Assembly: GCA_963748215.1 (NCBI GenBank)
Contig: CAVVHS010000006.1
Span: forward strand, 64,001-128,000
DNA: 64,000 nt
DNA from: an uncultured Gammaproteobacteria bacterium
GTDB lineage: Bacteria > Pseudomonadota > Gammaproteobacteria > UBA9214
Reading direction: 5' to 3'
A program made the position numbers and the translations under genes. The notes under the pieces are model-generated. The model saw nothing but the letters and a program-made list of their open reading frames with translations. It searched no databases and was not told where the DNA came from. Numbering within the stretch: the stretch's first letter is position 1; each line of letters starts with the position of its first letter. This document shows positions 1 to 9,883 of this stretch, in pieces.

Positions 1-2463
1 GGTGTTATAGGCAAAGGCACCCGCCGGGCTTGGCTCATCGAGGGTCAGAAAGTCCGGGTTGCCGGAGCGGTCCACGCCGTTTTCATCGAGGTCCATCCAG
101 GCCCCTTCATAGATGATGAGCACCCCCGGCATACAACGTTCGGTGACATAGGCGGGTACAACGACCTTGCCTCGCTCATTCCAGACTTCGCAGATATCCC
201 CCATCTTGATTCCCAGCTTTCTGGCATCCGACGCGTTTACGGTGACCTCCTGCTCGTAGGTCTCCCGCAGCCAGCTGCAATTGTTGAAAATCGAATGCGT
301 CCGATGGCGGGGATGCGGCGAGATCAGGTGGAACGGGTATTTGTCTGTTTTCGGACTGTTCAGTGATTCCCATGGCTCGATCCACTTCGGGATAGCCGGG
401 ATATGATAGCCGTACATGGTCTTGGTCCAGTCTGTTATCTGTGCAAGCTGGGTTGAGAGGATCTCGATCTTCCCGGAGGGGGTCTGGAAGGGCAATCCTT
501 TCTCAATCTGGTCCTGAAACGCGACATGTGGTCGGGACAGTTTGAACTTGTAGACACCTCTGCGCTTGAATTCATCCCACGGCATGGTCACGCCCTGATG
601 GGCCATGACCTTGTGCTCCCACCAGTCGCGCAAATAGGCCTCGTCGACATCATCCTCATACTGGAAGTAGTTACGCGTAGCCTTGGGATTGAAGTCGCGG
701 CCAAATTCAGGGCTTATTCGATAGGCCAGTTCAGTGAAGATCTGGAGGTCGGTCTTGCTTTCCCCCAGCGGTTCGATGACTTTGGGACGATGGATGTAGT
801 AATGCCCCTTGTACCACGGCAATGCAGCGTCGTGCCGCTCGAAATGTGTCGCCACCGGCAGCAGCACATCGGCCCAAAGCCCGGACGGTGTAATGGTGGA
901 ATCCATGCACACCACCAGCTCCATCTTCTTGATGGCCTGCAGCTCCTTGTTGATATTGGTGAGCTGGTTCAACCAGTCGGAACCTTGCCAGAAGATACCG
1001 CGGATATTGGGGATCTGTCCGTCAGTTGCATCCTCGCGTGGCCACAGGCCGATCTCTTCGCGCTTGACATTGGGATAGTTCAAAACACAGTGCGCCCAGC
1101 GATCGGACTTGATCGACTGGAACCAGATGTTCGAGTACTTGTCGTAAGGGTAAGCGACAGCCTCCGCGTGCCAGGCTTTGCCCACACCTTCGGCGCAACC
1201 ACCCAGGATGCCGATATTGCCGGTCATGGCCTGCAGTGCCGCTGCCATACGGTTGTATTGTTCGCCGTAGGCGTTACGGCCCGGCGCCCACGAAGCCTTG
1301 AGCGCAGCCGGCTTAGTGGTCGCGTACATATGAGCGAGCTTCTTGATGTCAGCGGCTTCCACGCCGCAAATCCCTGCAGCCCATTCAGGCGTCTTGGGCT
1401 GGCCGTCGGAGTTGCCCAGGATGTAATCCTTGAACGACTCCTTGCCTCTGGCCCAGTCCGGCATGGTACCGGCGTCCATGCCCTGCACGAATCGATTGAT
1501 GAAGGACTGGTCCTGGAGATTGCTGGTGAATATATAGTGCGCCATGCCCGCCAGCATGGCCGCATCGGTATTGGGCCGGATGGGAATCCACCACGCGTCA
1601 TATACCGCGGCCGAATCCGTATATTGCGGGTCGATCAGCACGAACTTGCAGCCTTGCTGTTTGGCCATGCGCATATAATAGAACGTATTGCCGCCATGGA
1701 AGGTATAGGCCGGGTTCCAGCCCCACATGATGATCAGCTTTGAGTATGCAAAGACGTCGTCCTCGTTGCCGTCCTCAATTGTGCCGAAAGTCGTGCGCGA
1801 GCTGAAGGTGGTGCCTTGATAGGAGGGCACTGACCATGAGTTGGTACGGCATCCGAACATTCCGAGGAAACGGGCAAGCAATCCTTCGATCTGGTCGGAT
1901 TTATGCAAAACACCATAAGAGGCGCCCGCATAGCTCTGGTCGAGGAGGGCCGTGGGCCCATACTTGTTCTTGATCTCAACCATCTTGGTGGCAACATGAT
2001 CGAGTGCGGTATCCCAGGAGACACGTTTGAATCTGCCTTCGCCACGTTCCCCGACGCGCATCATGGGATACAGCAGGCGCTCCGCCGAGTAGATGCGCTG
2101 GCGGTATGAGCGGCCGCGCAGACAGGCCCTTAACTGGGGTTCTTCAAATGTGTCCTTGCCGTGTTGACCGTCTGCCTGATAGCTTCCGTCGTCGGTCGAC
2201 AGGCGGACGATGACATCACCCTTTTTGTGGGCCACCAGCATGTGACGGGAACCGCAATTGTGTGCGCAACTGGTGACTACGGTTTCGAGTTCATCATCAC
2301 GTGGATAGGGTTCGTAAGCAAAGGCCCTGGCCTGTTTCGCAGTACGCAGGTCAATAAGGCTGCCGCCGGTCAGGGTCGCGGCGCCAGCAGCAGAGGTCTT
2401 CAGGAATGACCGTCGGGTCATGTTAAGTCGTGATGCGAGCGCCTTCAGTTTATCAGGATCCAT
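1..2463 (-). CDS. Tat-exported DMSO-reductase-family (DmsA-like) molybdopterin oxidoreductase catalytic subunit; 3' end beyond window start
   Basis: Absent from ORF track because no stop lies in the window. Manual translation from ATG at 2463 is open to base 1: MDPDKLKALASRLNMTRRSFLK (Tat), CAHNCGSRH...RACLRGRSYRQRIYSAERLLYPMMRVGERGEGRFKRVSWD, MWGWNPA, WIPIRPNTDAAM, FQTPSGKIEI, HPRHRTHS, C-terminal molydopterin-binding domain. Confidence 0.9.
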   Translation of the reverse strand, partial: MDPDKLKALASRLNMTRRSFLKTSAAGAATLTGGSLIDLRTAKQARAFAYEPYPRDDELETVVTSCAHNCGSRHMLVAHKKGDVIVRLSTDDGSYQADGQHGKDTFEEPQLRACLRGRSYRQRIYSAERLLYPMMRVGERGEGRFKRVSWDTALDHVATKMVEIKNKYGPTALLDQSYAGASYGVLHKSDQIEGLLARFLGMFGCRTNSWSVPSYQGTTFSSRTTFGTIEDGNEDDVFAYSKLIIMWGWNPAYTFHGGNTFYYMRMAKQQGCKFVLIDPQYTDSAAVYDAWWIPIRPNTDAAMLAGMAHYIFTSNLQDQSFINRFVQGMDAGTMPDWARGKESFKDYILGNSDGQPKTPEWAAGICGVEAADIKKLAHMYATTKPAALKASWAPGRNAYGEQYNRMAAALQAMTGNIGILGGCAEGVGKAWHAEAVAYPYDKYSNIWFQSIKSDRWAHCVLNYPNVKREEIGLWPREDATDGQIPNIRGIFWQGSDWLNQLTNINKELQAIKKMELVVCMDSTITPSGLWADVLLPVATHFERHDAALPWYKGHYYIHRPKVIEPLGESKTDLQIFTELAYRISPEFGRDFNPKATRNYFQYEDDVDEAYLRDWWEHKVMAHQGVTMPWDEFKRRGVYKFKLSRPHVAFQDQIEKGLPFQTPSGKIEILSTQLAQITDWTKTMYGYHIPAIPKWIEPWESLNSPKTDKYPFHLISPHPRHRTHSIFNNCSWLRETYEQEVTVNASDARKLGIKMGDICEVWNERGKVVVPAYVTERCMPGVLIIYEGAWMDLDENGVDRSGNPDFLTLDEPSPAGAFAYNT

Positions 2464-2487
2464 GTAGATACCCATTCTGTTCGATGA

Positions 2488-3297
2488 TCACTGTGCTGGT
2501 TGTACGGATTCCCCGGCTATGCCGCCAAGAAAACGTGCCTCCGATTCGCTGGGCCGGTCCTTTGCCCAGTCAGGAATCTGCTCGGCGATACCGGGCCAGC
2601 TATGACGCGGGAAAGGGAAACTGGTCCGGAACCATGCGCGTCCGCCGTGGCAGCCAAAACACACATCTGCATCTTCCTGGCCAGCCTGTTCGATGGCTTC
2701 GGCATTGAGGAAATTAACCTGGTGGCGATGGGTACGGATCGCAATATGGCAGGTCAGACATGAATCACCGAAGGTTTCGCTGACTTCGAGCCACGGGCCG
2801 GGCAGCCCCATGAGCTGGTAATCAAACTTTCCATGACACATCAGGCAGGTCTTCGGATTGACCACCTTGCGCAGCGTGAAGCCGGCATCGTTGCTGGTTG
2901 GCGGGACTGGTGCCTCCTCGCGAGGGTCGTGGCCCTGATGACAGGTGTTGCACTTCATGTCCATCACCCGTTTCGCCAGCGGCGTTACCAGGTGACGCCG
3001 GTGAAAAGTCTCCTGTGGTCCTGCATAGGTGTTCAGAGTCTGGTACCACGCCAGCGCTTCACTGGCCGTAACCCCGGCCGGTGACTGTTCCAGCACCTTG
3101 CGTTCCAGTATTTCCTGATGGCAACCCAGGCACTGTTCATCGCTTGTGCTATCGATTGCCGGTTTAAAATGGCTGGGATCCCAGCGCGCGGCTTCATATG
3201 CCTCTGTATCAGGATCGGCTGCCCGGACATCTATCCAGGCAGTAATCGTGCTTACCATAGCCAGCAGCAGAAAGATGGTTACCTTGACAGTTTGCAT
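2488..3297 (-). CDS. Periplasmic pentaheme cytochrome c
   Basis: Five CxxCH motifs (CLGCH, CNTCH, CLMCH, CLTCH, CFGCH); hydrophobic N-terminus; ATG at 3297 preceded by AAGGA. Confidence 0.9.
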   Translation of the reverse strand: MQTVKVTIFLLLAMVSTITAWIDVRAADPDTEAYEAARWDPSHFKPAIDSTSDEQCLGCHQEILERKVLEQSPAGVTASEALAWYQTLNTYAGPQETFHRRHLVTPLAKRVMDMKCNTCHQGHDPREEAPVPPTSNDAGFTLRKVVNPKTCLMCHGKFDYQLMGLPGPWLEVSETFGDSCLTCHIAIRTHRHQVNFLNAEAIEQAGQEDADVCFGCHGGRAWFRTSFPFPRHSWPGIAEQIPDWAKDRPSESEARFLGGIAGESVQPAQ

Positions 3298-3388
3298 CAA
3301 TCCCGTGTCCTTGAGAAAAGACAAATCAGTTCATGGCGAAAGAGATCAGAGGGTACGTCCCTGTACCCCCAGGATCCCTATTGAACCC

Positions 3389-4741
3389 TCACTCGCCCTT
3401 GGGTGGCGTCCATTCTTTCTTGCCTTCCATGCCCTGCATTCCGGACATACCGCCCATGCCTGACATGCCGGACATACCGCCCATGCCTGACATTCCGGAC
3501 ATACCGCCCATACCTGACATTCCGGACATACCGCCCATACCTGACATTCCAGACATACCACTGGCCGGATAGAAGTAGATCTGGCCCTGGGGTGTGATCT
3601 GGAAATAGCCGGACATACCGCCCATGCCACCCATGCCTCCCATGCCGGACATACCGCCCATGCCGGACATGCCGCCCATGCCGGACATGCCGCCCATGCC
3701 GGACATGCCGCCCATGCCGGACATACCGCCCATGCCACTCATACCGGACATGCCGCTAGGTACCCAGACCCACTGGCCGCCCATGCCTTGCATACCGGAC
3801 ATACCGCCCATGCCTGACATTCCGGACATACCGCCCATGCCTGACATGCCGGACATACCGCCCATGCCGGACATGCCACCCATGCCTGACATGCCGGACA
3901 TACCACCCATGCCGCTCATGCCTGACATGCCGCCCATACCGGACATCCCGCTCATACCACTGGCCGGATAGAAGTAGATCTGGCCCTGGGGTGTGATATT
4001 GAAGTAGCCGGACATACCGCCCATGCCACCCATGCCTTGCATGCCGGACATACCGCCCATGCCTGACATTCCGGACATACCGCCCATGCCACCCATGCCT
4101 TGCATACCGGACATGCCACCCATGCCGCCCATGCCTGACATACCACCCATACCGCCCATGCCACTCATGCCGGACATGCCGCCCATGCCGCTCGGCACAT
4201 AGACCCACTGGCCACTCATGCCTTGCATGCCACCCATACCGCCCATGCCTGACATACCACCCATGCCGCCCATGCCGGACATGCCACCCATGCCACCCAT
4301 GCCTGACATGCCGGACATACCACCCATGCCGCTCATGCCTGACATGCCGCCCATACCGGACATCCCGCTCATACCACTGGCCGGATAGAAGTAGATCTGG
4401 CCCTGGGGTGTGATATTGAAGTAGCCGGACATACCGCCCATGCCACCCATGCCTTGCATGCCGGACATACCACCCATGCCTTGCATGCCGGACATGCCGC
4501 CCATGCCTTGCATGCCGGACATGCCGCCCATGCCTTGCATGCCGGACATACCGCCCATGCCTTCCATGCCGGACATACCTTCCATACCGGACATACCTTC
4601 CATACCGGACATGCCTTCCATACCCGACATGCCGGCCATACCCGCCTCAGCGGAATGGACTTGCGGTGCACCGATCAGAGATCCCATTACGGTAACCAGT
4701 CCGATGATTTTCTTGAAGCGATACATTCGTGACATATTCAT
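3389..4741 (-). CDS. Secreted methionine/glycine-rich repeat protein (450 aa; 113 M-x-G triplets in six blocks separated by aromatic spacers)
   Basis: Strong RBS (GAGGAGAAGGAG) before ATG 4741; Sec-type signal MNMSRMYRFKKIIGLVTVMGSLIGAPQVHS; third-position variation between repeats while the frame stays open. Confidence 0.85.
   Translation of the reverse strand: MNMSRMYRFKKIIGLVTVMGSLIGAPQVHSAEAGMAGMSGMEGMSGMEGMSGMEGMSGMEGMGGMSGMQGMGGMSGMQGMGGMSGMQGMGGMSGMQGMGGMGGMSGYFNITPQGQIYFYPASGMSGMSGMGGMSGMSGMGGMSGMSGMGGMGGMSGMGGMGGMSGMGGMGGMQGMSGQWVYVPSGMGGMSGMSGMGGMGGMSGMGGMGGMSGMQGMGGMGGMSGMSGMGGMSGMQGMGGMGGMSGYFNITPQGQIYFYPASGMSGMSGMGGMSGMSGMGGMSGMSGMGGMSGMGGMSGMSGMGGMSGMSGMGGMSGMQGMGGQWVWVPSGMSGMSGMGGMSGMGGMSGMGGMSGMGGMSGMGGMSGMGGMGGMGGMSGYFQITPQGQIYFYPASGMSGMSGMGGMSGMSGMGGMSGMSGMGGMSGMSGMGGMSGMQGMEGKKEWTPPKGE
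3425..4640. repeat. 9-bp coding tandem repeat with a ~400-bp higher-order unit
   Basis: CATGCC-nnn / CATACC-nnn periodicity; cassette CCACTGGCCGGATAGAAGTAGATCTGGCCCTGGGGTGTGAT occurs three times (~3557, ~3957, ~4374). Confidence 0.95.
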
Positions 4742-4879
4742 ATCTTTCTCCTTCTCCTCAATAATATTCTTCTGAGTTAGACTGCGGTTATCCGCAGTCT
4801 GGTTTGGCACCGGCCTGGCAAACAGGCCGGGGTTTCTTTGCGCCCGCGTAGCGGGTGAGGCTGAGCAGCCAGGCGCCCT

Positions 4880-5200
4880 TCAGTCACCGGTATACCAACC
4901 ACGCATGTCATAATGGCCCGTCATGCCTGGATGGATAAACGGCGTATACCAGTTACCCTGGTCCTCGAGAAAACCGAGGCTGTTGGGGTAGGGCTTGCTT
5001 ACGCCTGTCAGTGCTTGCTGATACCAGACGTCACCCTTGATCACCTGCTTGATGACAGGTGCGTTGTTTGGACGCTCATAAGGTGTGAGACCGGCTATTG
5101 GATACTCTGCCTGCGCAACGCTCCATGCACTGAGCAGTGCAGCCGTAAGTCCGACGGACACTTTTCCCTGTCGATGATGTTTCAACTCACTCCTCCCCAC
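4880..5200 (-). CDS. Small secreted hypothetical protein, first gene of the operon
   Basis: Signal peptide ending AQA; Pro/Gly/aromatic-rich mature part (YPIAGLTPYERP...DQGNWYTPFIHPGMTGHYD); start codon uncertain. Confidence 0.7.
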   Translation of the reverse strand: MGRSELKHHRQGKVSVGLTAALLSAWSVAQAEYPIAGLTPYERPNNAPVIKQVIKGDVWYQQALTGVSKPYPNSLGFLEDQGNWYTPFIHPGMTGHYDMRGWYTGD

Positions 5201-5276
5201 GAGTGAAAGTCACAAGATCATACCGCGCTTTGATTTTCAAAATGCGGTTTGCCTTTAACTCCCTCAAATCTAATGT

Positions 5277-5293
5277 AGCAAACTCTGAGCCAA
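5277..5293 (-). promoter_or_regulatory. sigma54 -24/-12 promoter of the molybdoenzyme operon
   Basis: Minus strand TTGGCTCAGAGTTTGCT, GG-N10-GC spacing, ~75 bp upstream of first gene. Confidence 0.65.
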
Positions 5294-5570
5294 TAGCCGT
5301 CAACTTCCTGCAAGGGTCTGTTGTCAAACGGGTATTAGACTGATTGGCGGGAGCCGGGTGTCGTTCGCCAGTTACTGAAATCTGCCAATTTGGCGAGAGA
5401 AAAGGCTGGATACACACAACCTCATTGATTTGCCTGGAGAATTATTTATGCCAAATTTGCAGGTGATAGTGCGTTTCGCCAGCCGGGAGTGTACAGGCTG
5501 CGCAGCATGCATTTCGACGAGATCCGGGAAGGGTGTTAAGGACTTTTCACCGGATTGTCGGGCAGGAATA

Positions 5571-6374
5571 CTAAAATAAAGGCAACAGCTCGCCGTTCCG
5601 CTTGTTAATGATCAATTCATTACGCAACCTGTAGGGTGGTATTTGGTCAACAATCTTGACAAGATAAATCCAGTTGATGTTGCGAATACCGCCCACGCCA
5701 AGCTCTGTATATCCGGACTCCAAACGCCAGTTTTCACTGATCCGCCATGCCTCTTCGATGGTGTTTACCGGCAACTTTACCCCTGCCGTGAACAGGAATT
5801 CCTGTTGTTCTTCGGCACAATCCGCTTTGGTTGCGGTGGGAAGTGGAAGGGGGTGCGCTGGCGCCAGGAGATGTAAAGCGTTGCTGCCTTCCTGTACCAG
5901 ATTCCAGCTGTAAGCCTCTAACAATTCATGTAATTGCTGCATATCTTCAGATGACACCGTCAATGTGATCGATACAGGTGCCGGTTCCTGTGCCGGTGGA
6001 GTGTCCCGTAATGGCAATAAAAGGGTGGAACCATCAGGGGCGCGCTCTACGCGCCAGCCACGCGTTTCCAGCAGGCTGCGCAGGCTTTCAAAATCGCCGG
6101 TCATCGATGGCTGCGGCACAGTGACATCGTCTGCCTCCGCTGCCTGTGGAGTGTCTCGTAACGGAAATAACAGGGTGGAACCATCAGGGGTACGCTCTAT
6201 ACGCCAGCCCCGCGTTTCCAGCAGGCTGTGCAGGCTTTCAAAATCGCCGGTCATCGATGGCTGCGGTGCAGCGACATCGCTCGCCTCCGCATTCCATGCC
6301 CATATGGCATATCCCGTCAAAGCAAGCACCAGAACCCATCGGAAAGCCTCGTGCCACCGGATCAGAATTTTCAT
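5571..6374 (-). CDS. Secreted/membrane-anchored hypothetical protein with a 50-aa internal duplication and possible PepSY-like C-terminus
   Basis: GAGGAG RBS; N-terminal hydrophobic segment; PQPSMTGDFESLxSLLETRGWRxERxPDGSTLLxPLRDTP twice (DNA 5998-6140 and 6148-6290). Confidence 0.75.
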   Translation of the reverse strand: MKILIRWHEAFRWVLVLALTGYAIWAWNAEASDVAAPQPSMTGDFESLHSLLETRGWRIERTPDGSTLLFPLRDTPQAAEADDVTVPQPSMTGDFESLRSLLETRGWRVERAPDGSTLLLPLRDTPPAQEPAPVSITLTVSSEDMQQLHELLEAYSWNLVQEGSNALHLLAPAHPLPLPTATKADCAEEQQEFLFTAGVKLPVNTIEEAWRISENWRLESGYTELGVGGIRNINWIYLVKIVDQIPPYRLRNELIINKRNGELLPLF

Positions 6375-6486
6375 GTTATGCTCCTCAATACATTAATAAT
6401 AATTAGTTAATCGACCGCGCAGGGTATGTGCATGGCGACTTTGTTATCGACCTGGGTAGCAGGTGTCGGGCGCTCGTTATGGACGG

Positions 6487-6503
6487 AGCAATTGTCATGC
6501 CAG
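6487..6503 (-). promoter_or_regulatory. sigma54 -24/-12 promoter
   Basis: Minus strand CTGGCATGACAATTGCT, near-perfect consensus, upstream of 6374 gene. Confidence 0.75.
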
Positions 6504-6629
6504 TTGCCAGGTACAAGGCAGGCATCCAAATTGAGTCGCTGCGGAACCTGACTCACACACTGGTGTATTTTCCGGTTGAGGAGGTGTCCGCTTTGGGGCT
6601 GCCAGTATCGCAGTAGCTTTTGATGTTAG

Positions 6630-8534
6630 ATGAATATAATGCCCACAGCGACCACACGTTGGATAAAGACGAGTCTCAGCCGCAAGTTTCTGTCAGGCGT
6701 CGCTGCAGGGCTGGTCGTGACCTCGCTTGTCTTCCTGTTGTTGTTTATGGCCATGTACCGCGCCCAGTTGCAGTCAGAACGCATCCAGGCCGTAGAAGAT
6801 ATTAATCGGCTGCTGCAGACGTCTCTGGAAAACGCAATGCTCAAGCGGGATCTGGACGGACTGCGCGACATCGTTGCCAGACTCGGTCAACAGGACGGCA
6901 TTGTTGGGGTAATGATCGTCAATCCGGACGGTGAAGTGCGTTTTGCCGCTGATCAGAACATGCTGGGGCACCAATTTTCCAGGGAAACGGATTCAGCCTG
7001 CCGCGTATGTCACTTGAGCGGAAGCATGCCTGACGACACCACTGTTTTTACCGTAAACGAACGGGGGCAGGAGGTCTTGCGCAGCGTTAACCCCGTGCAG
7101 AACAAGGCAGCCTGTATCGGTTGCCATGGCCCGATAGAGACTCATCCTGTCAACGGCGTCCTGTTTGTCGACTACGATGCATTGCCCATTCGTCGTCATG
7201 CGCAACAAACGACTTTGTTACTCATGGGATCCGGTGCCCTGGTGGTGTTGATCACGTTAACGGGTGGCTGGTGGTTTATGCGCCGATTCGTTCTGCAACC
7301 GGTACAGCAGTTGTGCAAAGCCAGCCAGGCGATGTCAGAAGGACAACTTGATGCGCGTGTCCACTTGCCCGTAACAGATGAACTGGGAGAGCTCGGCCGC
7401 ACTTTCAACGTGATGGGAGAACGTCTGGAGCGGAGTATGCGTGAATTACAGGAGAAAGATTTATTCCTGCAAGGCGTTGTGGATGCCATTCCAGACGGTA
7501 TTCGCGTGATAGACGATCAGTTCGCAATTGTGCTGTCCAATCAGGCCTATCGCCAGCAGCTGGGTCTTGCAGAGGAAGAAGAAAGCGCCAGGCCGTGTTA
7601 CCTTTCCAGCCACAAGCGTTATCAACCCTGCCCGCCAACACTGGTACGCTGTCCGCTTCACGAGATCCTGAAAAACGGCGAGCCTGTGAAAGTGCTCGAT
7701 CAGTTTATTGGTGCTGATGGTCGGCCGTTTTCCGTGGAAGTGGTTGCTGCACCCATGCAGATGCCTGTCGGGGATGACTCCAGGACCCTGATCGTGGAAT
7801 CAGTGCGTAATCTCGAAGAACATGTTCTGTTCTCACAGGAACAACGACTTTCAGAACTGGGACGACTCGCGGCTGGTGTGGCCCATGAAATTCACAACCC
7901 GCTGACATCTATACGCCTTGCACTGGACTCGATGGTGAAAGCGGGGAAGCAGGCTGATGGGAACCTTTCCAGGGCATGGGACTATCTTGAGGTTATTGAT
8001 TCACAGGTCGATCAGTGCATCAGCATAACAGAGCGACTCCTGAAAATGAGCCTGTCTCCTGGGCAGCGCCAGGTTGTGGATATGAATGTCGCGGTTGGCG
8101 AGGTTATATCACTGGTTGCATGGGAAGCCGAGAACAAGAGTGTTTCAATCCATCAAAAACTCGATCCAGGCAACCCGCGGGTCATTGCGACTGAAAGCGA
8201 ATTTCGTACTGTGATCCTGAATCTGGTGCAGAATGCCTTTCATGCAATGCCGGATGGTGGACGGATCGACATCTGCACCCGGAAGAATAACGGAAACGTA
8301 ATACTCATCGTCGGGGATACGGGGGTGGGCATTCTCCCTGAAGACCGGCCGCATATCTTCGAGCCTTTCTTCAGTCGCCGTGCTGACGGCGTGAATGGCA
8401 CAGGGCTCGGCTTATCCATTCTTCGGGCAGTTGTCGACCACTATGGCGGACGCATCGAGGTAGAGAGCCAGCGCGGTCAGGGTAGCCGATTCACCGTATT
8501 ATTTCCCGATGCCGATAGCGAGGGAAGGTACTAG
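6630..8534 (+). CDS. Sensor histidine kinase with periplasmic diheme-c domain, HAMP, PAS, HisKA, HATPase
   Basis: Two TM helices flanking CRVCH and CIGCH; DELGELGRTFN (HAMP); GVAHEIHNPL; NLVQNA, DTGVGI, GTGLGL. Confidence 0.92.
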   Translation: MNIMPTATTRWIKTSLSRKFLSGVAAGLVVTSLVFLLLFMAMYRAQLQSERIQAVEDINRLLQTSLENAMLKRDLDGLRDIVARLGQQDGIVGVMIVNPDGEVRFAADQNMLGHQFSRETDSACRVCHLSGSMPDDTTVFTVNERGQEVLRSVNPVQNKAACIGCHGPIETHPVNGVLFVDYDALPIRRHAQQTTLLLMGSGALVVLITLTGGWWFMRRFVLQPVQQLCKASQAMSEGQLDARVHLPVTDELGELGRTFNVMGERLERSMRELQEKDLFLQGVVDAIPDGIRVIDDQFAIVLSNQAYRQQLGLAEEEESARPCYLSSHKRYQPCPPTLVRCPLHEILKNGEPVKVLDQFIGADGRPFSVEVVAAPMQMPVGDDSRTLIVESVRNLEEHVLFSQEQRLSELGRLAAGVAHEIHNPLTSIRLALDSMVKAGKQADGNLSRAWDYLEVIDSQVDQCISITERLLKMSLSPGQRQVVDMNVAVGEVISLVAWEAENKSVSIHQKLDPGNPRVIATESEFRTVILNLVQNAFHAMPDGGRIDICTRKNNGNVILIVGDTGVGILPEDRPHIFEPFFSRRADGVNGTGLGLSILRAVVDHYGGRIEVESQRGQGSRFTVLFPDADSEGRY

Positions 8535-8536
8535 TT

Positions 8537-9883
8537 ATGATAAAAACCATCCTGGTTGTCGAAGACGACAAGATTCTAAACCGGCTCATTGCCGAACACA
8601 TCGAACGCATAGGCTATGCGGTTCGGGCTGCGTACACCTGGGCAGAGGCCGATCAATATCTGGCGCACCATGAACCGGATCTCGTTTTGATGGATGTGCG
8701 ACTGCCGGACGCGAACGGGATGGAACTGCTTCCCCGGTTGGCAGGTGTGCAACCCGTCATTGTTGTCACTGCATACGGATCGGTGAAGGATGCCGTGAAA
8801 GCCATGCATGCAGGGGTCGAAGATTATCTGACCAAACCCATCAGCCTGGATGAATTGGAAATCGTGGTAAAGAGGACGCTGGATAATATCGCCATGCGAG
8901 CGGAACATCAATTTTGCATACAGCGGATGCAGGCCAGTGAAGGCAAAAAGCTCATGATTGGAAACAGCCCGGCCATGCAGGAGGTCCATCGCCTGATTGA
9001 TGCAGTTGCCGGTACCGATATGACCGTGCTTATTCAAGGAGAAAGTGGTGTCGGTAAGGAGCTCGTGGCGAAGACAGTCCATGAGCGCAGTAACCGGTCA
9101 AAATGTAATTTCGTTGCAGTGGACTGCTGCACCCTTCCGGAAAAACTGTTCGAATCCGAATTGTTCGGACACGAACGCGGTGCCTTCACCAGTGCTGACC
9201 GGCAAAAGAAAGGACTTATCGAGGGCGCCGGTGGCGGAAGCCTTTTTCTGGATGAGATAGGCGAAATCGAAATGGCGGTGCAGGCCAAACTGCTGCGCGT
9301 GCTCGAAACCGGGGTGTTTCGCCGGGTCGGAGGAACGAAGGATTTACGCGCCAATGTGCGGATCGTGGCGGCCACGAACAGCGACCTGGAAAAGGCCAGC
9401 CGGGAAGGAAGCTTCCGTTCCGACCTTTACTACCGCCTGAGTGCTTTTATCATTACAGTTCCTCCGTTACGCGAACGCCGTGAGGATATACCCGAACTCG
9501 TTGATTATTTTATAGGTAGTCGCGAATTTTCACGCCGCATCAATACCACGGTATCTCGTAGTGCGATGCGCGCCTTACTGGCCTATGACTGGCCAGGCAA
9601 TGTCAGGGAACTGAAAAACACAATCGAACGCGCCATCATACTTTCCTGGCAGACCAGGAAGATACGTCCAGAACATCTTGCGCCTATGATTGCCAGTACC
9701 GAGTCGTCAAGTTCGGTGACATTGACCTTCGATCATGAGCCGAGTCTTGCCGAGGTTGAGGGAAAGTATCTGCAGATGCTGCTGACGAAGTACTCGGGAC
9801 ATCGTTTGGACATAGCAAAAAGGCTGGGTGTCAGTGAAAGAAATATTTATCGATTGATCGATAAACATCAGCTAAAGAGCTGA
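8537..9883 (+). CDS. sigma54-dependent (NtrC/AtoC-type) response regulator
   Basis: Receiver domain; GESGVGKE Walker A; ESELFGHERGAFTSA; LFLDEIGE; WPGNVREL; Fis-type HTH. Confidence 0.95.
   Translation: MIKTILVVEDDKILNRLIAEHIERIGYAVRAAYTWAEADQYLAHHEPDLVLMDVRLPDANGMELLPRLAGVQPVIVVTAYGSVKDAVKAMHAGVEDYLTKPISLDELEIVVKRTLDNIAMRAEHQFCIQRMQASEGKKLMIGNSPAMQEVHRLIDAVAGTDMTVLIQGESGVGKELVAKTVHERSNRSKCNFVAVDCCTLPEKLFESELFGHERGAFTSADRQKKGLIEGAGGGSLFLDEIGEIEMAVQAKLLRVLETGVFRRVGGTKDLRANVRIVAATNSDLEKASREGSFRSDLYYRLSAFIITVPPLRERREDIPELVDYFIGSREFSRRINTTVSRSAMRALLAYDWPGNVRELKNTIERAIILSWQTRKIRPEHLAPMIASTESSSSVTLTFDHEPSLAEVEGKYLQMLLTKYSGHRLDIAKRLGVSERNIYRLIDKHQLKS

Follow-up and report, generated by a model that had tools for sequence, protein, structure and literature searches.

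The window analysed here is a 64,000-nucleotide stretch of the genome of an uncultured gammaproteobacterium of the UBA9214 lineage (GenBank assembly GCA_963748215.1, contig CAVVHS010000006.1; G000:C6:64001-128000 in our genome set); the genome measures 3.5 Mb and is 95% complete. It opens on a gene cluster in which a secreted methionine polymer is encoded beside a DmsA-like molybdoenzyme of the dimethyl sulfoxide (DMSO) reductase superfamily. The list of open reading frames (ORFs) gives five co-directional minus-strand genes at 1-6374, which encode, in order of transcription, a 267-amino-acid secreted repeat protein (p267), a 106-amino-acid secreted protein (p106), the polymer, a pentaheme c-type cytochrome (cyt5) and the DmsA-like catalytic subunit. 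A sensor histidine kinase and a sigma54-dependent response regulator follow on the other strand. Beyond the window, the operon continues with a DmsB-like four-cluster subunit (L001:17216-17881, minus strand; Fer4_11, 5e-23), a TorD/DmsD-like chaperone (L001:16431-17216, minus strand; Nitrate_red_del, 1.5e-20) and then a 356-amino-acid protein with two 4Fe-4S dicluster domains.

A sequence-only reading of the window had proposed a unit made of the secreted 106-amino-acid protein, the methionine polymer, the pentaheme cytochrome and the DmsA-like enzyme, and all four are present on the minus strand. The sigma54 motif, diheme-c kinase and sigma54 activator that it placed beside them were also recovered by motif scan, Pfam and CxxCH motifs. 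The genes that it listed stand, but the unit is longer than it proposed, taking in p267 upstream and the DmsB, TorD-like and iron–sulfur proteins downstream. The same reading had suggested looking downstream for DmsB, DmsC and TorD; the DmsB-like and TorD/DmsD-like genes are there, but DmsC is not among the flanking genes. A DmsC/NrfD-type quinol-oxidising anchor was found neither among the ORFs that flank the operon nor in the 10 tracked query proteins, and no genome-wide search for DmsC was made.

A secreted polymer of Met-x-Gly units

The polymer gene (3389-4741, minus strand) encodes a secreted protein of 450 amino acids, counted from its ATG. Behind a general secretory (Sec)-type signal peptide that ends at VHSA/EAG, the chain contains exactly 113 Met-x-Gly (MxG) units, the length and the count both agreeing with the sequence-only reading. 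The units are arranged in six blocks of 24, 18, 20, 20, 16 and 15, which are separated by five conserved aromatic interruptions (three YF(N/Q)ITPQGQIYFYPASG motifs and two QWV(Y/W)VPSG motifs), and the protein ends in KKEWTPPKGE. Methionine makes up 26% of its residues and glycine 38%; it has 12 prolines and few charged residues, and is probably disordered. A genome-wide ORF search found a single (MxG)n ORF in the 3.5-Mb genome. Two other Met-rich ORFs (G000:C7:235402-236904 and G000:C6:855680-856627, both on the plus strand) carry His/Met motifs such as HMQTMQEHMDMM, in the style of copper proteins and unlike the polymer.

Thirteen complete polymers from this and other loci range from 141 to 450 amino acids and from 31 to 113 MxG units, the polymer in the window being the longest seen. 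Most contain 22-27% Met and 34-40% Gly, and most have one to three copies of a GYF.ITP.G.IFFYP motif. Polymers with an intact frame contain 0-1 His, no Cys and just 2-4 Lys or Arg residues beyond the signal peptide. The sole family matches are of the collagen type (PF01391 at 30.2 bits against a cut-off of 27.2; the NCBIfam models Scl2 and Lcl score far below their cut-offs), and arise because glycine occupies every third residue.

The repeat also generates overlapping open frames on both strands of window positions 3300-4800 (PMPDMPP.. on the plus strand, RHGRHV.. and AWAVCPAW.. on the minus strand), and gene callers may pick the wrong frame. The MxG frame is intact and co-directional with the operon in loci of very different G+C content. 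We rejected the opposite-strand ORFs within the gene as by-products of the repeat: stops interrupt them, a signal peptide is missing, and from locus to locus they keep no fixed orientation with respect to the operon. In at least 16 of the loci retrieved, a contig starts or stops inside the polymer gene, and several long-read assemblies have frameshifts within it (L008, L020 and L021). These breaks and shifts, together with the lack of any family match other than the compositional collagen one, explain why the gene has been overlooked, as do a product that yields no tryptic peptides and the label SRP54 that at least one annotation pipeline gives to the gene.

Homologue searches with the polymer are dominated by composition. 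Scoring covered 8,000 of the candidates, of which 40 passed, a procedure suited to finding fusions and not to counting relatives. Among them, (MxG)n tails or linkers occur on NapC-type cytochromes, CcoP, cytochromes c, a pyrroloquinoline quinone dehydrogenase and a DsrE-like protein (among P0083, P0084, P0085, P0086, P0087, P0091, P0100 and P0108). An OmpA-like protein (P0082) carries a 150-residue (MSG/MDG) run, and in P0091 a single chain unites a Met-rich segment with a cytochrome c and a cyt5 domain. Runs of the same kind are found in CusB-like adaptors (P0093) and in a multicopper oxidase (P0101). The (MxG)n tails and linkers on periplasmic redox proteins may be a widespread module that has escaped annotation. 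Additional polymer genes occur at some of the fetched loci: a second gene in L010 (4519-5487, plus strand) fuses (MxG)n to a PepSY-like p267 C-terminal domain, the polymer ORF of L050 (1730-3256, plus strand) contains the same domain, and L020 (20322-20798, minus strand) and L021 (18425-19102, minus strand) have further polymer genes, convergent with and downstream of the cluster, whose products end in ..GNKPWYMFWK.

The DmsA-like enzyme and its cytochrome

The window contains the first 825 of the 856 residues of the DmsA/YnfE-like molybdopterin catalytic subunit (1-2475, minus strand; assigned by Pfam); the ORF extends 31 codons beyond the window start, to G000:C6:63905-64000. Its domains (PF00384 Molybdopterin, 1.4e-46; PF01568 Molydop_binding, 4.1e-20) place it in the superfamily of DMSO reductases, which carry a molybdenum bis(pyranopterin guanine dinucleotide) (Mo-bisPGD) cofactor. 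Export by the twin-arginine translocation (Tat) pathway is indicated by a PF10518 match of 24.0 bits (cut-off, 22.7), and the RRSFLK motif is invariant in the alignment. The best families are TIGR02166 (dmsA_ynfE), which matches over the full length with 600.2 bits, below its cut-off of 777.7, and the BisC S-/N-oxide reductases; the DmsA, YnfE and YnfF equivalog models give scores far short of their cut-offs. The closest solved structures are those of Rhodobacter DMSO reductase (8.8e-75) and trimethylamine N-oxide (TMAO) reductases.

The serine of a VPSYQG motif, kept in 34 of 34 relatives, aligns with the serine of GDYS in Escherichia coli DmsA and of GDYST in Rhodobacter DorA, which we take to be the molybdenum ligand in both. 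The enzyme thus retains the serine ligand typical of S-/N-oxide reductases, in line with the S-oxide reductase assignment of the sequence-only reading. In the enzymes known to act on sulfur or polysulfide the ligand is a cysteine, and a sulfur or polysulfide reductase identity was set aside on this ground.

The first iron–sulfur cluster site, FS0, is unusual. In all 34 clade members and paralogs it reads C-AHN-C-GSR-H ... RAC (residues ~66-84 of the window protein), compared with C-TVN-C-GSR-C ... RAC in E. coli DmsA. The Pfam Fe4S4 domain scores 20.2 bits on the window protein against a cut-off of 22.7, and the cluster may be His-ligated or otherwise altered. The likeness to E. coli DmsABC and YnfEFGH otherwise extends to the full-length alignment, the Tat signal, the DmsB-type partner and the TorD/DmsD-type chaperone, whereas the sub-cut-off score, the replacement of the third FS0 cysteine by histidine and the lack of a DmsC/YnfH anchor at the locus set the present enzyme apart.

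The cytochrome, cyt5 (2488-3324, minus strand), has five CxxCH motifs, all of which are present in 10 of 10 homologues. It matches the Pfam families Cytochrome_C7, Paired_CXXCH_1 and NapC/NirT weakly, as it does the NCBIfam model for NrfB, under the cut-off. Members of the NapC/NirT family have an N-terminal membrane anchor, but the N terminus of cyt5, read by eye, resembles a cleavable Sec signal, with ends of the A-x-A type in homologues. We consider cyt5 probably soluble and periplasmic, so that its electrons would probably come from the soluble periplasmic cytochrome pool and not directly from quinol.

The polymer tracks one enzyme lineage

Searches with cyt5 found it in two genomes from other families of the class, and in both the contig stops within an (MxG)n ORF directly upstream. 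When one genome per species was scanned, 33 loci were obtained. According to the record titles, the hosts include Sedimenticolaceae, Sedimenticola, Candidatus Thiodiazotropha (symbionts of lucinid clams) and endosymbionts of the tubeworms Escarpia and Lamellibrachia, as well as Thiotrichaceae, Cocleimonas, Arenicellales, Chromatiales, Thiobacillus, Thioalkalivibrio and unclassified Gamma- and Betaproteobacteria. One record labelled Clostridia is probably a binning error, because the tree places its DmsA together with that of an Arenicellales locus.

In 28 of 29 primary-copy loci, the ORF immediately upstream of the cytochrome, on the same strand, is of the (MxG)n kind, although in two of these 28 only the last 23 or 10 polymer residues remain at the start of the contig. 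Including two relatives and the window itself, the polymer is present in 31 of 32 loci; the absence of Met-rich ORFs from homologous loci, which the sequence-only reading had named as an outcome that would count against its proposal, is not borne out. The exception is a Thioalkalivibrio locus (L034), in which p106 is followed after 286 nucleotides by the cytochrome. Wherever contigs reach, the gene order is kept: response regulator and histidine kinase on one strand and, divergently, p267, p106, polymer, cyt5, dmsA, dmsB, the torD-like gene and the gene for the 4Fe-4S dicluster protein.

A second sample, which may overlap the first, gave a similar picture. In 400 genomes drawn evenly from the class, p106 occurs in 11 besides the window's own. 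The polymer follows p106 in nine of them; in one, the contig ends 326 nucleotides downstream, inside an ORF that starts with a signal peptide; and in one (G046), p106 stands after a torD-like gene and there is no polymer.

Some genomes also carry a paralogous cyt5'-dmsA'(-dmsB') set, found in L036-L039 and as second copies in L019, L029, L033 and L035 (for example, L033:9950-14263, L019:16520-20746 and L038:9059-14065). No Met-rich ORF was flagged beside these sets. In the three loci with a readable upstream gene (L019, L033 and L038), a gene for a Crp/FNR-like regulator precedes the set, which may be an ancestral, anaerobically regulated form. With E. coli DmsA, which has a very long branch, as the root of a quick maximum-likelihood tree, 27 polymer-linked DmsA proteins and the Thioalkalivibrio one form a clade (Shimodaira–Hasegawa-like approximate likelihood ratio test support, 99), and the paralogs fall outside it. 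The polymer therefore follows a single lineage of the enzyme and has been lost at least once. Polymer-linked enzymes of different families are 77-84% identical, a strikingly high value. The pairing of polymer and enzyme goes beyond chance.

Accessory proteins and neighbouring genes

p106 (4880-5200, minus strand) is a small secreted protein of no known family, with a signal peptide that ends at SVAQA/EY. Its likely start is a TTG at 5185 behind a GGAGG site, giving 101 amino acids and a mature protein of ~75; the ESM Atlas record starts at the same TTG. We found no Pfam or NCBIfam match. The 81 homologues are all unnamed or labelled 'hypothetical', and an alignment of 39 sequences has 15 invariant columns. 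The AlphaFold2 model is of low confidence (mean predicted local distance difference test score (pLDDT), 65.6; predicted template modelling score, 0.35), and the ESM Atlas offers 'hypothetical protein' clusters and no model. A CusF-like metal site was considered and rejected, the His and Met of HPGMTGHYDM not being conserved. Predictions of a complex between mature p106 and the DmsA-like enzyme (residues 46-856, 25-row alignment) scored 0.79, 0.00 and 0.00 in three runs and carry no weight either way.

p267 (5571-6374, minus strand) consists of three small helix-strand-strand modules and a C-terminal PepSY-like domain, and its gene contains a 150-nucleotide tandem repeat. Homologues occupy the same position in 11 loci. 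In the AlphaFold2 model (mean pLDDT, 61), just the C-terminal residues 200-267 are confident (pLDDT ~88); their best structural match, the PepSY domain of YpeB (Z 6.9), is weak and within the chance range for the search.

Between the p106 stop and the polymer start (4810-4830, minus strand), an 8-bp GC-rich inverted repeat, CCGGCCTG / CAGGCCGG, encloses a 5-nucleotide loop with no T-run behind it, and might set the ratio of p106 to polymer transcript. Beyond the operon, on the other strand, lies a gene for a lipoprotein that combines NHL repeats with a thioredoxin-like domain, in which WTYGCINC is conserved (G000:C6:59637-61214, plus strand; L001:13637-15214). It adjoins the cluster in the window genome and in 12 other loci, and its product is a possible thiol-based partner. 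L001:12350-12925 contains an RseA-like anti-sigma-E ORF. About 7 kb from the operon, a 464-amino-acid lipoprotein-like ORF (L001:9820-11214, minus strand; G000:C6:55820-57214) has an N-terminal poly-Gly stretch and a C-terminal cytochrome c domain.

A heme-c sensor kinase and putative sigma54 control

The kinase gene (6630-8534, plus strand) encodes, by Pfam, a periplasmic domain with c-type heme motifs, followed by HAMP, PAS, HisKA and HATPase domains. Of its two CxxCH motifs, the one at residue 162 is kept in 12 of 12 homologues and the one at residue 124 in 3 of 12. The response regulator (8537-9883, plus strand) combines a receiver, an AAA+ domain and HTH_8 (Sigma54_activat, 1.8e-66; Response_reg, 1.2e-25), and stands divergently beside the operon in 13 fetched loci.

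Two elements of the sigma54 -24/-12 type face the operon: TGGCTCAGAGTTTGCT (5292-5277, minus strand), ~90 nucleotides upstream of the 106-amino-acid ORF, and TGGCATGACAATTGCT (6502-6487, minus strand), ~113 nucleotides upstream of the 267-amino-acid ORF. The pattern TGGC-N7-T[TG]GC[AT] occurs five times in the 64-kb window, counting both strands. At other loci, the same pattern lies within 400 nucleotides upstream of the p106 homologue in 8 of 15 cases and of the p267 homologue in 7 of 10. The locus thus has the parts of an NtrC-type sigma54 two-component system: a receiver, an AAA+ domain and a helix-turn-helix in one protein, a partner kinase, and -24/-12 sites at the target.

High expression in a lucinid clam symbiont

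Published data from a lucinid clam symbiont show how strongly such a cluster can be expressed. In the supplementary transcript table of Petersen et al., which is sorted on a length-adjusted share column (~4,077 genes), contiguous genes of NODE_1 match the operon in order and size and are among the most expressed. The hypothetical p267-like gene peg.2061 (780 nucleotides) ranks 17; peg.2062 (1011 nucleotides), annotated 'SRP54 Ffh' and located at the position of the polymer, ranks 57; the hypothetical, cyt5-sized peg.2063 (756 nucleotides) ranks 21; and dmsA (peg.2064, 2565 nucleotides), the 4Fe-4S protein gene corresponding to dmsB (peg.2065) and torD (peg.2066) rank 13, 12 and 47. The kinase gene on the opposite strand, peg.2060, ranks 267. 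A second dmsA in the same table, peg.3323, ranks ~2,001, with 18 counts in the first individual.

The proteins are abundant as well. In the first three proteome samples, normalized spectral abundance factors are 0.56-0.62% for the DmsA-like protein, 1.05-1.26% for the 259-amino-acid p267-like hypothetical protein and 0.26-0.30% for the 249-amino-acid, cyt5-sized hypothetical protein; all three are listed in all six proteomes. The symbiont enzyme of the DMSO-reductase type is expressed together with aerobic oxidases (bioRxiv 10.64898/2025.12.05.692423; PMC6872982), which fits a protective role better than strictly anaerobic respiration. In lucinid symbionts, dmsAB is described near a divergent soxY (PMC11237559). 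In their available portions, the papers that treat this reductase mention no methionine-rich gene (bioRxiv 10.64898/2025.12.05.692423; PMC6872982; PMC11237559), and the 2025 preprint states that the role of the highly expressed reductase, and organosulfur cycling, have not been experimentally demonstrated (bioRxiv 10.64898/2025.12.05.692423).

A putative methionine redox cycle

The reading that we favour, tentatively and at a little less than an even chance, is a sigma54-controlled periplasmic cycle between methionine and methionine sulfoxide, in which the polymer would take up oxidants and a cytochrome-fed molybdoenzyme would reduce it again. The Sec-exported chain, nearly free of Lys, Arg, His and Cys, would expose about 30 to 113 thioethers, which two-electron oxidants would convert to methionine sulfoxide. 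The Tat-exported DmsA-like Mo-bisPGD enzyme and its DmsB-type four-cluster partner would return the sulfoxides to methionine. In place of a quinol-oxidising DmsC anchor, the dedicated pentaheme cytochrome would feed DmsAB, probably by drawing on a periplasmic cytochrome c pool that is kept reduced by sulfur oxidation. The net effect would be catalytic oxidant removal in the periplasm of bacteria that live at oxic–sulfidic interfaces. p106 and p267, the latter very abundant, would serve as accessory proteins, and the heme-c sensor kinase and sigma54 activator would set expression. We infer the oxidation of the polymer, the activity of the enzyme on it, the electron route and the inducing signal from gene content and from precedent.

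That precedent is published. In Azospira suillum, the peptide MrpX is sacrificially oxidised and regenerated by YedY (PMC4436054); Rhodobacter sphaeroides DorA reduces protein-bound methionine sulfoxide (PMC7402097); Campylobacter concisus BisA, with a soluble cytochrome c partner, repairs periplasmic methionine sulfoxide (PMC10653797); and Haemophilus influenzae DmsABC is induced by hypochlorite (PMC11024254).

The closest parallel is the MrpX/YedY1Z1 (MsrPQ) system, in which a Sec-exported, probably unfolded Met-rich protein shares an operon with a Tat-exported molybdoenzyme proposed to regenerate it, likewise in the periplasm and under dedicated stress-type regulation (PMC4436054). However, MrpX is a small peptide, 20% of which is Met and 44% charged residues (PMC4436054), whereas the polymers described here are far longer (141-450 amino acids), almost uncharged and strictly periodic, with aromatic motifs and a glycine content of 34-40%. 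The reductase differs too, being a DmsAB of the DMSO-reductase family with a pentaheme cytochrome instead of MsrP, which has the sulfite-oxidase fold, with MsrQ, and regulation is by a heme-c kinase and a sigma54 activator instead of SigF/NrsF. We found no match to PF00174, the MsrP fold, in the window genome at its 95% completeness; a control search matched 9 of 14 reference genomes.

Within the DMSO-reductase family, H. influenzae MtsZ reportedly also reduces methionine sulfoxide. DorA, BisA, MtsZ and DmsABC resemble the present enzyme as periplasmic Mo-bisPGD S-oxide reductases with a serine ligand, but none has a dedicated methionine polymer gene alongside. DorA, TorA and BisA have neither a DmsB subunit nor FS0, and E. 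coli-type DmsABC has a DmsC quinol anchor; the polymer-linked clade, in contrast, combines a DmsA with a C-x3-C-x3-H FS0 motif, a DmsB and a pentaheme cytochrome, with no DmsC in the cluster. A full-text literature search, with most subscription journals outside its coverage, returned no account of a methionine polymer paired with a DMSO-reductase-family enzyme, and so agrees with the sequence-only reading, which knew of no such pairing. A Met-rich scavenger served by a molybdenum reductase is a known concept; what is new is the polymer itself, the family of the enzyme, the wiring through a cytochrome, the regulators and the range of hosts.

Several observations weigh against a methionine redox cycle. 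Searches with cyt5 did not find the cluster in any of 24 same-genus genomes, and it is therefore accessory. The window genome has copies of MsrA and MsrB with signal peptides, so a dedicated molybdenum reductase is not strictly needed. Methionine reacts fast with hypochlorous acid (HOCl) and chloramines and slowly with H2O2. Stretches of (MxG)n also occur in copper-handling proteins. At the Thioalkalivibrio locus L034 and in G046, p106 and the enzyme are present although there is no polymer, so the enzyme has a function independent of it. In the clam symbiont, the gene product at the polymer's position has no hits in six proteomes; with just 2-4 Lys or Arg residues after the signal peptide this is as expected, and is uninformative either way. 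The identities of peg.2062 as the polymer and of peg.2064 as a member of the polymer-linked clade are assigned from synteny, sizes and annotations, including the SRP54 label.

Alternative explanations

An alternative, which we regard as unlikely, is that the enzyme serves ordinary respiration or detoxification by reducing small S-/N-oxides (DMSO, free methionine sulfoxide or TMAO) and that the polymer is an accessory and not its substrate. The polymer could then be a local antioxidant shield or matrix that allows a molybdenum and iron–sulfur enzyme sensitive to oxygen to function in an oxic periplasm, or it could hold the enzyme as a scaffold. This would accommodate the persistence of the enzyme clade without a polymer in L034 and G046, the paralog behind a Crp/FNR-like gene, and the (MxG)n tails on many periplasmic redox proteins, which suggest a generic protective or tethering module. 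It is also how the symbiont authors read the gene, as a DMSO reductase (PMC6872982; bioRxiv 10.64898/2025.12.05.692423; PMC11237559), although the preprint states that organosulfur cycling has not been demonstrated experimentally in these symbionts (bioRxiv 10.64898/2025.12.05.692423). It leaves unexplained why a free-standing polymer of up to 113 units sits at one clade, in 31 of 32 loci, and is absent from the close paralog that the same genomes carry. Moreover, a shield that had been oxidised must still be re-reduced.

Rather improbable is a role for the polymer as a periplasmic sponge or store for Cu(I) (or Ag or Hg), bound through MxxMxxM, with an indirect link to the reductase, such as shielding an abundant molybdenum and iron–sulfur enzyme from copper. 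The 'Mets' motifs MxxM and MxM are established Cu(I) ligands in Ctr1, CueO and CusF-type proteins. Similar (MxG)n runs are found in CusB-like adaptors of resistance-nodulation-division (RND) systems (P0093 and several more in the match table) and in the multicopper oxidase P0101, and copper-delivery genes are highly expressed in the lucinid symbiont (Cox11 is among the top table rows in Petersen et al.). The M-x-G-M-x-G pattern that these copper-handling proteins share is, however, limited there to a short insert or tail and interspersed with Lys, Glu, Asp and His, whereas the polymer is free-standing and near-pure, and frame-intact polymers lack the His, Asp and Cys usual at copper sites. The conserved cluster genes that we tracked include no P-type ATPase, CusCBA, multicopper oxidase or CopC/D; the regulatory pair consists of a heme-c sensor and a sigma54 activator and is not of the CusRS/CopRS type; and Met/His-rich ORFs of the kind usual for copper lie elsewhere in the genome, separate from the polymer.

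The sequence-only reading had also suggested that the polymer serves as a stored electron acceptor, a 'battery' of methionine and methionine sulfoxide that would be charged in oxygen and respired in anoxia. The hosts and habitats of polymer carriers do alternate between oxic and sulfidic conditions, and a cytochrome-wired enzyme could in principle run in either direction, but the suggestion is probably wrong on capacity: by rough estimate, ~230 electrons per ~36-kDa chain amount to ~6 mmol electrons per g polymer, enough at 1% of dry mass for seconds to ~1 min of respiration. With no charging enzyme evident and no energy-conserving, quinol-oxidising subunit of the DmsC/NrfD type in the cluster, we consider this very improbable.

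Equally slim is the chance that the polymer is structural (a periplasmic hydrogel, a collagen-like fibre or part of a sulfur-globule envelope) and tied to the enzyme by shared regulation alone: glycine at every third residue gives the collagen-family matches, the conserved aromatic beta-type motifs could zip chains together, and most polymer-carrying bacteria store sulfur globules (the one Thioalkalivibrio locus without a polymer being a single data point), but a Gly-x-y fibre has no need of the Met that is invariant at the first position of every unit, the Pro and charged residues that stabilise bacterial collagens are almost lacking, and the ligand of the enzyme is serine, not the cysteine of enzymes that act on sulfur or polysulfide.

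Implications

The DMSO-reductase-type enzyme of chemosynthetic symbionts can now be placed in a conserved eight-gene unit together with a near-pure methionine polymer. If the methionine redox cycle is correct, sulfur-oxidising bacteria, among them the symbionts that nourish lucinid clams and tubeworms, would run a previously unrecognised 'methionine polymer cycle', in which poly(Met-x-Gly) is a regenerable oxidant trap that the DmsAB–pentaheme complex recharges with electrons from sulfur oxidation; we hold this possible, at somewhat short of an even chance. Such a cycle would explain the abundance of a so-called anaerobic DMSO reductase in symbionts that respire aerobically, and the polymer would rank among the known functional proteins densest in methionine. 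If oxidation also changed the solubility of the polymer, the resulting redox-switchable gel in the periplasm would be another new property.

Should the polymer bind copper instead, it would represent a new kind of periplasmic metal store. In either case, a long-standing puzzle of chemosynthetic symbiosis becomes directly testable, in the cultivable Sedimenticola. If the polymer is the substrate of the enzyme, a natural macromolecular substrate would be added to the DMSO reductase family, and chemosynthetic symbioses and the sulfur oxidisers of sediments would share a new and abundant antioxidant strategy.

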